This document shows, piece after piece, positions 519 through 45,297 of a stretch of 46,279 nucleotides of DNA. This DNA comes from a virus (Duplodnaviria; Caudoviricetes). Every line of letters begins with the position of its first letter. The first letter of the stretch is position 1. The stretch covers positions 1 to 46,279 of IMG/VR virus record IMGVR_UViG_3300046779_000472; one strand, given 5' to 3'. Under the pieces are notes generated by a model. That model had not been told where the DNA came from. It was given only the letters and a program-made list of their open reading frames with translations, and searched no databases. The position numbers were made by a program, and so were the translations under genes.

Positions 519-1036
519 TGGCAGATGCTGGAATTAAAAAGGTAACAATTCTCAACGAAGACTTACCAATAATAAATTCTGAAATTGCTGGATATGGTGT
601 CAGATACAGGATAGTATCTGAGGACCGTAACCGAGTTTCTCAATGGTCACCCACATACTATCTAGATGCTGGATATTCTTATGTTAATGGCAAGCCAATT
701 CCAGACCCAACCAAAGTCGGAGATGCCATCTCAATAGTTTGGGATAGAGTAGAAGTAAAAAGTGGCGATGTTTCAATAGGCAAGATCCGTGACTATGAAA
801 TCTGGGTAAGATGGGATAGGGGCGATGGTGGAGACTGGATATATGAGGGCAAGGTGCAAACAAACTCAGCCATACTATTTCAGCCAGATAAATATTACAA
901 AACTGTCAATGGGATTCCAGTCGAGCAATCTTTGGCACCAAACAAGATTTCAGTAGAAATATACCTAGAAAGTGTTCCAGCCGTAAGAAGCTCTGGAGAT
1001 CTTCTTAGATATCAGATAACTAACCACACGGTTTAA
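518..1036 (+). CDS. Hypothetical virion protein (fibronectin/Ig-like beta sandwich suspected)
   Basis: 172 aa ORF; YRIVSED...SQWSP and YEIWVRW resemble FN3-type strands. Confidence 0.5.
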   Translation: MADAGIKKVTILNEDLPIINSEIAGYGVRYRIVSEDRNRVSQWSPTYYLDAGYSYVNGKPIPDPTKVGDAISIVWDRVEVKSGDVSIGKIRDYEIWVRWDRGDGGDWIYEGKVQTNSAILFQPDKYYKTVNGIPVEQSLAPNKISVEIYLESVPAVRSSGDLLRYQITNHTV

Positions 1037-24543: not shown

Positions 24544-25347
24544 ATGAAAAAAACAACAATTATTATTGGTGCAATTCTTGCATCACTATCACTAACTCCA
24601 GCATATGCAGAAGAAGTAAAGACTCTGGCTATTATTGATAGCTACTTTGATACATCCAAGCTTTCTGGAAACATTGAAACTGTTTGTGTCGCAACCACTG
24701 GCTGTGACCTAACACCAAATTATGTGTCGAAGTCTTTCTCTGACCCACTTAATCACGGTACTGCTATGGCAGAAATAGCCATTAAGCAAAACCCAAAGGT
24801 AAAGTTGTTGCTAATTCGTGCAGCGTCAGAAACAAAGAACGCACGAACAGGTGCAGTATCTATTGGATTAATTAATGGCAATGACTTTCTAAAGTCGCTA
24901 CAGCTGGTGTCAAATAGAAAAGATGTACAGGCCGTATCATTCTCATATAACCTATCTGGAAACAAGGCATGCTCCTTGTCCACAACTGGTGGAGTAAATG
25001 TTAGGCTGGTCGATCCACAAATTCAGTCTACAATCTCTGGCCTAAAGGCTAAGGGTGTTCCAGTATTTTCATCTACTGGAAATAAGGCAGGTGCTGCAGT
25101 AAATTATCCAGCATGTATTCAGGATGTAAATTCTGTGGGCATCGGTGACCTAAATAAAAATGGAGCAATTTCTAGTGTGTACACCTTTGATGCTAATACA
25201 GATTACTTTGCAACAGCATCAGTATCTAACTATACCTCAAAGGCGTTTGGACTAATTCCAAATACAACTTCTGCTGGTAATGTTGCAGTTGCTGCAAAGT
25301 ATTTGCTATCATCGCTTGACAACAAGTTTGTAAATGTGATACCATAG
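24544..25347 (+). CDS. Secreted subtilisin-like (S8) peptidase
   Basis: Signal peptide; AIIDS (Asp), NHGTAMA (His), STGN, YPA, TTSAG (Ser). Confidence 0.7.
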   Translation: MKKTTIIIGAILASLSLTPAYAEEVKTLAIIDSYFDTSKLSGNIETVCVATTGCDLTPNYVSKSFSDPLNHGTAMAEIAIKQNPKVKLLLIRAASETKNARTGAVSIGLINGNDFLKSLQLVSNRKDVQAVSFSYNLSGNKACSLSTTGGVNVRLVDPQIQSTISGLKAKGVPVFSSTGNKAGAAVNYPACIQDVNSVGIGDLNKNGAISSVYTFDANTDYFATASVSNYTSKAFGLIPNTTSAGNVAVAAKYLLSSLDNKFVNVIP

Positions 25348-25379
25348 TATTAAAGGAAGTCCATCCTTAAACGGACGAT

Positions 25380-25452
25380 TGGGACATAGCTCAGCTGGCA
25401 GAGCGTTCGACTGTTAATCGAAATGTCGCAGGTTCGATCCCTGCTGTCCCAG
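25380..25452 (+). tRNA. tRNA-Asn(GTT)
   Basis: Full cloverleaf, TGGGACA/TGTCCCA acceptor, anticodon loop CT-GTT-AA; CCA not encoded. Confidence 0.92.
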
Positions 25453-25504
25453 CTAATGGTTCCGCTTGCACCACTCCTCGGGTATAGGATAAAAGCAAGC
25501 AAGT

Positions 25505-25575
25505 GCGTATGTTGCATAGTGGTAGTGCCCTATCCTTCCAAGTTAGAGGTGCAGGTTCGATTCCTGTCATACGCT
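25505..25575 (+). tRNA. tRNA-Gly(TCC)
   Basis: GCGTATG/CATACGC acceptor, loop CT-TCC-AA, TTCGATT T-loop. Confidence 0.88.
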
Positions 25576-25576
25576 C

Positions 25577-25749
25577 TATAGGTTAATCACCTATACGTGT
25601 ACAAGTGCACGTAAAATTGTCAACACTTGTTGCTGTCCAGGCAGTAGTTAATCTGGCGTGTAAGCACCTCATGATATAGGTTCGGAGCTGGTCACTCGTC
25701 TTAGGAAACGACTCAGGGATATAGGTCTGATTAATCTGATATCCCACCA
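25577..25749 (+). ncRNA. Candidate structured ncRNA (tandem pseudoknots plus CCA-ended minihelix)
   Basis: See findings; several nested and crossing helices and a terminal GGGATAT/ATATCCC-ACCA. Confidence 0.5.
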
Positions 25750-25818
25750 GGATAGATAGTTTAATAGGCAAAACGGCGTTGATCAGCCAGATTGGAAGTT
25801 CGACTCTTCCTCTATCCA
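25750..25818 (+). ncRNA. tRNA-like RNA with a truncated anticodon arm
   Basis: GGATAGA/TCTATCC acceptor, GTTT/AAAC D-stem, GGAAG-TTCGACT-CTTCC T-arm; anticodon arm only GGC-GTTGATCA-GCC. Confidence 0.65.
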
Positions 25819-25919
25819 CGAACGACTTATAACTGCAGTTCGTAATTGTTCGGCACCCAGAAATGGGTTAAGCTATAAGCGTCCATCAAGGTTGGTCCAC
25901 CCTCGTACGAGAACGGCCA

Positions 25920-25987
25920 GGACTTGTATGGTAACTGGAAGCACTCCAGGTGAAGCCATGGCAAACGGTGCAAATCCGACAAGTCCA
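25920..25987 (+). ncRNA. tRNA-like mimic B
   Basis: GGACTTGT/ACAAGTCC stem, ATGGT/GCCAT arm capped by CTGGA/TCCAG, CGG-TGCAAAT-CCG T-like arm. Confidence 0.5.
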
Positions 25988-25988
25988 C

Positions 25989-26066
25989 GATTCTTGCTAG
26001 AGACGGTTGTGTATGCAGCCATTTCGTGCCTCTACAGCCAGTCACAAAGTCTGGCCAAGAATCACC
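25989..26066 (+). ncRNA. tRNA-like mimic C
   Basis: GATTCTTG/CAAGAATC-ACC stem, TAGAG/CTCTA arm capped by GGTTGT/GCAGCC, GCCAG/CTGGC arm stacked on the closing stem. Confidence 0.45.
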
Positions 26067-26067
26067 T

Positions 26068-26141
26068 GGTCTGTTAGCTCAGTTGGTTAGAGCACCACCC
26101 TGTCACGGTGGGGGTCGTGGGTTCAAGTCCCATACAGATCG
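26068..26141 (+). tRNA. tRNA-Asp(GTC)
   Basis: GGTCTGT/ACAGATC acceptor, CCACC-CT-GTC-AC-GGTGG. Confidence 0.92.
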
Positions 26142-26219
26142 CAAAAAGTGGTGAAGTGGAGTATGTTGCAACTAAACTCTTCGTAAGAAACCCAGTGATG
26201 CTGGACATCCACTTTTTAT

Positions 26220-26292
26220 GCCGCCTTAGCTCATCTGGTAGAGCGACGCACTTGTAATGCGTAGGTGGTCGGTTCGAGTCCGACAGGTGGCT
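26220..26292 (+). tRNA. tRNA-Thr(TGT)
   Basis: GCCGCCT/AGGTGGC acceptor, ACGCA-CT-TGT-AA-TGCGT. Confidence 0.92.
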
Positions 26293-26308
26293 CTGAAAGG
26301 GTATTGCT

Positions 26309-26959
26309 ATGCAAAGCAGTTTTAATGAAGACTATGACTTCAATATATGGCAGAACTCTATAGATCCTAAGTTTCTAGAAATATCTGCAAGATCTAAGAT
26401 ACCAGAGAAATGGTTGATCTATGGTGGACATGGCTATGAAGATTCACCAATAAAGCCAATAAATAGGTATGTAGAAAATCTATATCCTGGGCCAGAGCTT
26501 ATTAGCATAAATAATAATACCGTAGTTCTTAGGCAAAGAAATCACGCAGAGATATTTTTGTTAGATAATTCAGATGGCTTCAGGAATATCGATAGGCCAC
26601 ATATGAGACAGTATTATCAGTCTTCTATGTCGCTGCCATTAGACCCAGAGTGTTTTGATCCAGTCTATGCCTTCTACACTCCCTGGATACTAGACCACAA
26701 TGTATTGGTTGATATTGTCCAGCCATCGGAAGATGGACCGTTTTTGGTACACCACACAAAGGCAAGCTTCTTTGAGTTCCCAGATGTAGTTAATTTTATA
26801 GAGCCACAGTTTGTGCCATTTAGATTTAAGAAGAGTGGCGAACATATGGTGTCCCCAGGCTTTGGCAAGATTAAGATTGGATCCCCAATGTTCGACATGG
26901 TCTTTGAGGCAGATGATATACTTGTAGAAAAGATAAGGAAGTTCTATGAACAAGATTAA
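26309..26959 (+). CDS. Hypothetical protein, possibly distantly related to the next two ORFs
   Basis: 216 aa; C-terminal KIKIGSPMFDM resembles the neighbours' GTP(L/I)xQ segment. Confidence 0.55.
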   Translation: MQSSFNEDYDFNIWQNSIDPKFLEISARSKIPEKWLIYGGHGYEDSPIKPINRYVENLYPGPELISINNNTVVLRQRNHAEIFLLDNSDGFRNIDRPHMRQYYQSSMSLPLDPECFDPVYAFYTPWILDHNVLVDIVQPSEDGPFLVHHTKASFFEFPDVVNFIEPQFVPFRFKKSGEHMVSPGFGKIKIGSPMFDMVFEADDILVEKIRKFYEQD

Positions 26960-35591: not shown

Positions 35592-35873
35592 GTGAAGAAT
35601 GACTGGAAAGATAACGGTCTGTGCCATGGCTATGATACAAACTTCTTCTTTGATAAATATGAAGAAGATATTCCTCTTAGGTCTGCAATAGATGAATTAT
35701 GCTCTAGCTGTCCATTAGTTAGACATTGCTTTGCTGTTGGCATTTCACAAAAAGAGTGGGGTGTCTGGGGAGGTGTTTACCTAGAAAATGGTGGCATATC
35801 TAAAGAGTTTAATAAGCATAGAACCAAGGCTCAGTGGGCTGAAAAATGGAAAAACTTAACGATGGACAACTAA
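35592..35873 (+). CDS. whiB: WhiB family Fe-S transcription factor
   Basis: W...LC...FF...C..CP...C and the WGVWGG turn. Confidence 0.85.
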   Translation: MKNDWKDNGLCHGYDTNFFFDKYEEDIPLRSAIDELCSSCPLVRHCFAVGISQKEWGVWGGVYLENGGISKEFNKHRTKAQWAEKWKNLTMDN

Positions 35874-45222: not shown

Positions 45223-45296
45223 TCTGCGATATCCTAATAGGTCAAGGAACCACTCTTATAAGGTGGAATATCTGGGTTCAAGTCCCAGTCGCAGTA
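45223..45296 (+). tRNA. tRNA-Ile(TAT)
   Basis: CTGCGA/TCGCAG acceptor (T1-T72 mismatch), TCCT/AGGA D-stem, CCACT-CT-TAT-AA-GGTGG, CTGGG-TTCAAGT-CCCAG. Confidence 0.8.
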
Positions 45297-45297
45297 C

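Follow-up and report, generated by a model that had tools for sequence, protein, structure and literature searches.

Runs of H-type pseudoknots that lead into an acceptor-like helix, with a tail left unpaired, are known from tmRNA, which contains four pseudoknots and an acceptor-like end, and from the RNA ends of tobamo- and tymoviruses. In phage tRNA arrays there are RNAs whose purpose has been an open question ever since RNAC and RNAD of phage T4, small non-tRNA RNAs of no known role from the phage tRNA region (PMC3014915). ROOL, GOLLD, and manA have recently been shown to build protein-free cages. Variants of manA (RF01745; PMC2864571) form cages of 8 to 60 subunits via intermolecular kissing loops (bioRxiv 10.64898/2026.07.01.735769), and a covarying kiss in ROOL that was first taken as a tertiary contact proved to be intermolecular (PMC12286853). 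For a decoy role, the pseudo-ToxI decoys of phage PhiTE constitute a precedent (PMC3475682). The ncRNA family analysed here is small, supported by covariation, and of an unusually simple layout consisting of a hairpin, four pseudoknots, and a second hairpin.

The window, i.e., the whole stretch of DNA that was analysed, is an entire linear virus record of 46,279 bases with an estimated completeness of 40%. It encodes a DnaB-like helicase, DNA polymerase, recombinase, the large terminase subunit, ribonucleotide reductase, endolysin, Hsp20, GroES, and thymidylate synthase. A WhiB gene is located at 35604-35777 and was also detected in all four near-complete relatives (103-116 kb), the same search matching only Corynebacterium among 14 control genomes. 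WhiB is not known outside the Actinobacteria and their phages, and its presence in the window and in the relatives makes an actinobacterial host likely. The sequencing runs containing the stretch are by their record mostly of freshwater origin, and the carriers are uncultured phages of approximately 110 kb that likely infect freshwater Actinobacteria. ARAGORN identified 13 tRNAs in the window, among which a tRNA-Ile with the anticodon TAT (45223-45297) is unusual for bacteria. In all 14 tRNA or tRNA-like genes (25380-45455) a C directly follows the discriminator base, and the full CCA is encoded by only three of them; no gene for a CCA-adding enzyme was found in the five genomes searched. The ncRNA gene lies in this array, and its strand is set by G-U pairs on the plus strand. 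The features of the locus, including the predicted structural elements of the ncRNA, are as follows (all on the plus strand):

25316..25345: promoter-like site upstream of the tRNA array (sigma-70-type, 10/12, extended TG)
25380..25452: tRNA-Asn(GTT), first gene of the array
25505..25575: tRNA-Gly(TCC), upstream neighbour, with a single C (25576) between it and the ncRNA gene
25577..25749: ncRNA gene (5' hairpin, four H-type pseudoknots, 3' hairpin, 4-nt tail), supported by 31 distinct copies and covariation
25577..25595: 5' hairpin, 6-bp stem and 7-nt loop (25583-25589), kiss half 25584-25589
25596..25630: pseudoknot 1, stem 1 25596-25599/25608-25611, stem 2 25601-25607/25624-25630
25631..25656: pseudoknot 2, stem 1 25631-25635/25642-25646, stem 2 25637-25640/25653-25656 (covariation and blind chain)
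25657..25681: pseudoknot 3, stem 1 25657-25660/25670-25673, stem 2 25666-25669/25678-25681 (covariation and blind chain)
25685..25713: pseudoknot 4, stem 1 25685-25687/25695-25697, stem 2 25690-25693/25710-25713, A-rich loop 3
25716..25745: 3' hairpin, 7-bp acceptor-like stem, 1-nt bulge (25738), 4-bp stem, 7-nt loop (25727-25733), kiss half 25728-25733
25746..25749: 4-nt tail (ACCA in the window), doubling as leader of the next gene
25750..25818: downstream tRNA-like RNA (46.5 bits with the Rfam tRNA model, missed by ARAGORN with default settings; cloverleaf z = -2.52)

The two hairpins, the terminal ACCA, the copies of a 7-mer at 25577, 25675, and 25720, and the start of the unit after tRNA-Gly had already been described in an earlier note on this DNA, and the letters are all in place. 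The gene also ends flush with the tRNA-like gene at 25750-25818, a point absent from that note.

The family comprises 31 distinct copies in phages of approximately 110 kb. Most counts given below are based on 30 copies, the 31st being a second copy in the array of locus L199 that was found last, and since the copies are related, these counts represent sequences and not evolutionary events. A pattern from the middle of the element, which included neither end loop, retrieved 15 viral and 11 metagenome loci, all of which were homologous; together with the window and after removal of five duplicates, these yielded 22 distinct sequences. Loci were also fetched via a neighbouring gene, and searches of the best 80 of 131 such loci added L103, L122, and L128 (by a profile) as well as L111 and L148 (by the covariance model R1, with E values of 4e-4 and 8e-4). 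L110 was spotted by eye among the spacers; it is not detected by model R1 and was included by its likeness to L199 (E = 3e-4). Two further patterns contributed L197 (one new locus among nine matches) and L199 (one new among two). Model R1 assigns 46.7 bits to L197, 19.2 bits to L199, and 118 bits to the second L199 copy, the two unlike copies of this array being located at 466-633 and 856-1018 (minus strand). Patterns built on the end loops retrieved mostly chance matches, with 3 of 28, 0 of 6, 15 of 39, and 4 of 9 hits in related loci. Applied to 50 whole records, model R1 found no copy beyond the known places (seven of the 50, and three of the seven near-complete ones, carry one).

The ncRNA is an optional cassette. 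Among the best 80 of 131 loci, 52 reach tRNA-Asn and tRNA-Asp, and 14 of these 52 carry the ncRNA; in L037 tRNA-Gly is joined directly to tRNA-Asp and the ncRNA is missing as a clean block. The gene upstream of the 30 copies is a tRNA-Gly (n = 16), tRNA-Asn (n = 9), or tRNA-Asp (n = 3), with none called in two cases. On the downstream side, ARAGORN called a gene of any kind at gap 0 in 26 of 30 copies and the other four adjoin tRNA-like RNAs by eye, every copy being flush at its 3' side with a tRNA or tRNA-like gene.

No Rfam family matched the ncRNA in the window, in the region 25300-26350 at E values up to 10, or in 19 related loci, and blastn of the ncRNA against 50,697 annotated phage records (INPHARED) and 72,556 plasmid records gave no match; when the whole array was used as query, matches were obtained through the tRNAs only. 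The core pattern had no match in GTDB genomes. No description of the four-knot family was found in the openly accessible literature searched. A published set of 10,006 viral RNA candidates (PMC10690425) showed no match to four motifs in its supplements 3-6, and the four-knot RNA may be contained elsewhere in this set as an unnamed candidate. The proposal of a discrete, highly structured, and uncatalogued ncRNA with tandem pseudoknots and complementary end loops in the earlier note is supported.

An alignment of 22 sequences was used for the analysis of covariation, a check that the earlier note had suggested. Over the 58 proposed pairs, 94.4% of the cells are paired, compared to 87.9% in shuffles and 32-39% in slid controls, and two-sided changes occur in 27 of the 58 pairs, values reached in none of 500 shuffles. 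The result supports both end hairpins and a tandem arrangement of H-type pseudoknots, whose number, previously given as three or four, is corrected to four. In the 5' hairpin all six pairs show two-sided changes in the 22 sequences (z = -2.93), and in the 3' hairpin nine of 11 pairs do so, with 99% of the cells paired; the pair closing the 3' loop (25726-25734) covaries as well (UA in 16, CG in four, and UG in two of 22 sequences). Pseudoknot 1, which was also found blind, shows two-sided changes in two of four pairs of stem 1 and five of seven pairs of stem 2, and its sequence is swapped wholesale in other subfamilies. The weakest support for any stem 1 was obtained for pseudoknot 3 (no pair with two-sided change), and in L110, L199, L111, L148, and L197 this slot or the preceding one is occupied, as judged by eye, by a hairpin instead. 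Pseudoknot 4 represents the best conserved core: with stem partners located by patterns drawn up after the sequences had been seen, both stems are fully paired in all 30 members, and each stem occurs in five sequence types. As an alternative to pseudoknot 4, a local GUC/GAC hairpin was considered and rejected, as it fails in L110, L111, L148, L197, and L199, where the knot holds.

Since automatic alignment fails where pseudoknots 1 and 2 are replaced, a chain of four H-type pseudoknots was also sought blindly in each single sequence, using descriptor limits that were set after the fold of the window had been seen. For 29 of 30 members, including the window (which also beat 200 of 200 in an earlier run with 10 members), this chain scores better than every one of 100 dinucleotide shuffles, whereas the chain of L101 was equalled by 12 of 100 shuffles. 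The linkers between the pseudoknots amount to 0-3 nt in 27 of 30 members versus median sums of 4-10 nt in the shuffles, and short linkers were not rewarded by the procedure. Plain nested folding of the 173 nt results in a long mispaired hairpin with an unremarkable z of -0.99, as is to be expected with half of the helices in pseudoknots; this minimum-free-energy hairpin was set aside, as the method cannot draw pseudoknots. No reading frame is kept open across the members, and an open reading frame of 78 codons on the minus strand (25583-25819) was rejected as not conserved. Judged by these comparisons, the locus is very probably a selected RNA gene with the predicted secondary structure of hairpin, four pseudoknots, and hairpin.

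The loops of the two end hairpins had been reported to be exactly complementary over 7 nt. They are indeed complementary and kept, but the conserved kiss comprises 6 bp (25584-25589 with 25728-25733), because a seventh pair would open the covarying closing pair 25726-25734. All six pairs are of the Watson-Crick type in 24 of 30 members and at least five in all 30, and the 31st copy has five plus one G-U pair. A loss of loop complementarity in homologs, which the earlier note had named as an observation that would speak against it, was not seen (at least five of six pairs in 31 of 31 copies). Among 200,000 draws of two random 7-nt loops of the same composition, 0.1% gave a Watson-Crick run of at least 6 and 0.0075% a run of 7, and the loops stay complementary though the initial family search patterns contained neither of them. 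In L111 and L148, three positions that face each other in the kiss deviate from the common sequence in both loops; five of six pairs are kept, two of them by double change, next to one U-C mismatch, and crossing the common loops with those of L111/L148 leaves only three of six pairs. L111 and L148 are near-identical and form one lineage, so that this double swap, a rewriting of the loop code, is one evolutionary event, in register. In the main family the kiss never varies on both sides and five of its six pairs are invariant, and the near-invariant loops there point to selection, not to pairing as such. Because complementarity is conserved and one double swap occurred in register, it is quite probable that the two end loops pair with each other.

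Contigs of close relatives, from RNA libraries of four freshwater studies, cover all or part of the ncRNA. Those of three studies begin at 25588-25591, within the 5' hairpin, and one contig of 158 bases corresponds exactly to 25588-25745; four contigs run on into the next tRNA-like gene, one spans tRNA-Gly, and further genes of the phage likewise have coverage in these RNA runs. These data, which stem from RNA runs only (4 of 22 listed) and, being assembled contigs, are silent on ends, strand, and level, give a weak hint of ncRNA expression.

As the junctions with the neighbouring genes are flush, the ncRNA is likely to be co-transcribed with the tRNAs as one precursor and released by the processing of its neighbours. 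The neighbouring tRNAs are matured by RNase P and 3'-end trimming, and the host enzymes would free the ncRNA by 3'-end trimming of the upstream tRNA and by the RNase P cut at the downstream one. We infer that the promoter-like site at 25316-25345 may mark the start of this common precursor; its -35 box before tRNA-Asn is found at the same place in L036 and L200, but by count (one site found versus 2.0 expected by chance) such sites are no evidence. After release, the 6-bp kiss would clasp the ends and lead to a compact, nuclease-resistant RNA. Provided that the loops pair, a kiss within one molecule is slightly favoured, because the length of the ncRNA stays at 163-186 nt (as cut) while the inner pseudoknots are replaced, the sequences of pseudoknots 1 and 2 changing completely. 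In a crude length model with 2.8 Å per pair, pseudoknots 1-3 (~84 Å) would lie beside a rod formed by the 5' hairpin, the kiss, the 3' hairpin, and pseudoknot 4 (~87 Å), and the chain would fold back into a closed tile of two helices, i.e., two side-by-side rods. During infection, such an RNA would have a non-catalytic role, either structural or as a decoy. More tentatively, by analogy with the pseudo-ToxI decoys, it may be made to last and to bind or sequester a host factor, which it would contact through pseudoknot 4 and the conserved kiss, while pseudoknots 1-3 would form an exchangeable structured spacer. The reading as a whole, a processed, kiss-clasped, compact structural or decoy ncRNA freed from a tRNA precursor, is assigned a probability of roughly 0.5.

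The main rival to the clasp in cis, possible but of clearly lower likelihood, is a kiss between molecules, by which rods of approximately 54 bp of stacked pseudoknots with loops at opposite ends would assemble head-to-tail into protein-free rings, cages, or filaments. The short linkers favour coaxial stacking, which rules out closure in cis: with all three zero-linker junctions stacked, the same crude model requires 131-148 Å where ~61 Å are available. However, one complementary loop pair per molecule would give chains or rings and no cage by itself, and the narrow spacer length despite the turnover of its content fits the reach required in cis. With open hinges, a partner in cis also has a higher effective concentration than a partner in trans. 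Cross-compatible loops are kept by the two unlike copies of L199, in line with pairing between molecules. The same mode is used by manA, which occurs in the same arrays and builds cages by intermolecular kissing loops (bioRxiv 10.64898/2026.07.01.735769), and likewise by ROOL and GOLLD, located near tRNA islands (PMC12286853). The natural variants, which rewrite the loop code or swap whole pseudoknots, make a clasp in cis and intermolecular assembly distinguishable in vitro. In a speculative extension, the RNA might be regarded as a natural building block, in which four exchangeable pseudoknots stack into a stiff rod whose sticky ends are programmable. It would form a self-closing tile, comparable to RNA origami made from one strand, or protein-free head-to-tail rings or filaments in infected Actinobacteria and would be one of a set of swappable array RNAs. 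The four-knot RNA represents a ready-made modular part for RNA nanotechnology, and the present evidence implies no new enzyme or pathway.

A third reading, which has little probability, holds that the loops bind another partner, either a protein or a tRNA by codon-anticodon-like contact, and that their complementarity is incidental. This could account for two loops that are near-invariant across very different bodies and for the pyrimidine-U step that opens the 3' loop in 28 of 30 members, presumably a U-turn-like motif, but not for a 6-bp match with a chance of ~0.1% or for the changes of both loops at matching positions in L111/L148, where pairing is kept and the triplet at the anticodon position is lost. 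T-box-like decoys in which the loops display a codon and anticodon, here for isoleucine, were also considered and dropped, as the triplet is not kept in that lineage.

The earlier note had proposed a switch with two states, in which the kiss proceeds to a 13-bp duplex that opens both hairpins, together with a CCA-ended minihelix, which might be aminoacylated or mimic a tRNA. This combination now appears very improbable. The exchange duplex was scored in 25 members (L110, L111, and L148 were skipped, and L197 and L199 joined the set later). All six arm pairs are present in only two of these; five or six (G-U allowed) persist in the closest relatives, but at most two Watson-Crick pairs are left in nine of 25, without compensating change, and none of the six in L083 and L101. 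In the window the exchange duplex (-16.4 kcal/mol) is nearly isoenergetic with the two hairpins (-16.6 kcal/mol, kiss left out), and the hairpin state is predicted to be as stable as or more stable than the duplex even without the kiss. The triple 7-mer repeat, although present in the window, occurs in three copies in only one of 25 members. Similarly, the ACCA and the 7-bp acceptor-like stem exist in the window, but an ACCA is encoded in only two of 30 members, none of the 30 has a T-loop, and the G3-U70 pair is absent, the third stem pair being G-C or A-U in all 30. The tail always has four bases, with A in first place in 29 of 30, A then C in 22 of 30 as in the window tRNA genes without encoded CCA, and U in last place in 22 of 30. 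Since it is always 4 nt long and the next tRNA follows at gap 0 in 26 of 30, the tail is best interpreted as leader sequence belonging to the gene that follows; enzymatic addition of CCA is possible because only three of the 14 tRNA or tRNA-like genes in the window encode CCA either.

Equally doubtful is a role as processing aid, either as a self-cleaving ribozyme or as a folded spacer that helps to release the flanking tRNAs. Theta ribozymes reportedly sit at tRNA 3' ends (PMC10879173), and the ncRNA abuts the 3' end of a called upstream tRNA in 28 of 30 cases, but the part of it that is best conserved lies at the end remote from that tRNA, and relatives exist without the ncRNA between the same tRNAs. 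No Rfam ribozyme model matched the ncRNA, the hammerhead core CUGANGA is present in 0 of 30 members, and a loose theta/HDV-like descriptor, run without a positive control, matched one of 30; the covarying pseudoknots are arranged in tandem and not nested. Finally, a relic or piece of tmRNA, as might be imagined from the four consecutive pseudoknots and the acceptor-like terminus, is extremely unlikely in view of the lack of a tag frame, T-loop, and G3-U70 pair and of RF00023, for which none of five genomes exceeded the cut-off, sub-threshold matches falling on tRNAs and none on the ncRNA at E values up to 10.

Several further candidates were compared with the ncRNA. Permuted tmRNAs called by ARAGORN at a lowered threshold (six calls in five of 26 loci) have unrelated tags and were discarded as inconsistent. 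The sole match of the plant-virus tRNA-like model RF00233 fell on tRNA-Asp with 17.5 bits, compared to a cut-off of 40. A Y RNA was rejected, as Ro60/TROVE (PF05731) was found in none of five genomes (none of four near-complete ones) and the ncRNA lacks a T-loop and an Rfam match. Tandem direct repeats of the ToxI type were rejected likewise, the longest direct repeat measuring only 6-10 nt in all 30 members. The Rfam models of manA, ROOL, and GOLLD had no match on the ncRNA (E up to 10) or in nine further loci (E up to 1), and the manA model does detect manA in neighbouring positions of the same arrays.

This manA RNA (RF01745, 62-72 bits) was found in five of 10 loci scanned (L110, L111, L122, L124, and L131) and in L078:

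L110 8235-8416, L111 6163-6344, L122 8150-8331, L124 8789-8969, L131 8151-8333, L078 738-921: manA RNA

Lying flush among the tRNA genes of these WhiB-type phages, manA fits better as a stand-alone RNA than as the 5' UTR element under which it is listed. Other RNAs share these arrays as well. The RNA at 25750-25818 is a separate unit with a shortened anticodon arm, whose place is taken by other tRNAs in relatives. Similar tRNA-like RNAs (43-47 bits with the Rfam tRNA model) were observed in L077, L085, L087, L089, L092, L111, L122, and L148; their D and T arms are intact, and the anticodon arm consists of 2-3 bp and an 8-nt loop with a palindromic hexamer that is one base away from each kiss loop. 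Such RNAs might dimerise with one another or base-pair with the four-knot RNA at its 3' loop. At 25920-25988, the window contains a second tRNA-like RNA with a 7-bp acceptor-like stem, a T-arm-like hairpin, and no Rfam match, a type that directly follows the four-knot RNA in L082, L090, and the RNA-library contigs of X3 and X8. It is followed by a folded spacer at 25989-26067 (z = -3.35 for 25982-26067) with relatives in L148, L170, and L199, whose ends pair as an acceptor-like stem and which is succeeded by a 4-nt tail and tRNA-Asp. Conserved non-tRNA spacers at 25454-25504, 25820-25918, and 26143-26219 are common to L019 and other relatives, the last one being nearly identical in L019 though the flanking tRNAs differ.

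An uncatalogued family of 170-190 nt is located between tRNAs in L111 (6420-6590), L124 (9201-9393), L127 (7594-7786), L129 (5456-5648), and L103 (7849-8019); its members begin with a hairpin and end in an acceptor-like one, and the loop of the latter appears complementary to a loop in the interior. In a family of ~90 nt (L141 8435-8525, L153 8268-8357, L113, L150, and L170), the 3' hairpin loop looks complementary to the RNA's own 5' end, which would correspond to a smaller end-to-end clasp. Short protein-coding inserts in the tRNA arrays of L132 (7553-7992) and L170 (2142-2516) appear HNH endonuclease-like by eye and are a possible route for cassette exchange. A third uncatalogued family usually lies just after tRNA-Asp:

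L110 8727-8878, L122 8426-8574, L131 8480-8628, L141 8598-8748, L148 8265-8420, L149 4907-5078, L153 8432-8602, L129 5718-5888: RNA family of 150-170 nt

Compared with the known systems, the ncRNA shares with tmRNA and the tobamo- and tymovirus ends a run of pseudoknots, an acceptor-like helix, and an unpaired tail. The likeness pointed out in the earlier note holds for this layout and does not extend to membership, as the ncRNA lacks a tag frame, T-loop, G3-U70 pair, and conserved CCA, and its acceptor-like helix is, unlike in tmRNA and the plant-virus ends, a simple hairpin with a loop that likely pairs with the 5' end. Like ToxI and pseudo-ToxI, the ncRNA is phage-made and composed of tandem small pseudoknot-sized units; ToxI units, however, are direct repeats, whereas the four pseudoknots of the ncRNA are unrelated in sequence and framed by kissing hairpins. 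ROOL and GOLLD resemble it as phage RNAs near tRNA islands that are rich in pseudoknots and kisses (PMC12286853), but they comprise several hundred nucleotides, differ in layout, and have no Rfam match to the ncRNA. With manA, which assembles through kissing loops, the ncRNA has in common a size below 200 nt, the phage origin, and the location in the same tRNA arrays of relatives; manA, in contrast, is a multi-stem RNA with several kissing interfaces, whereas the ncRNA consists of consecutive H-type pseudoknots and has just one loop pair, between its two ends. To RNAC and RNAD of T4 the likeness is one of placement, a non-tRNA unit lying flush among phage tRNA genes, with no sequence match of the ncRNA in the phage records searched. 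The four-knot RNA is a new family with a layout not seen before and belongs to an established kind of molecule, that of structured RNAs carried in the tRNA arrays of phages.
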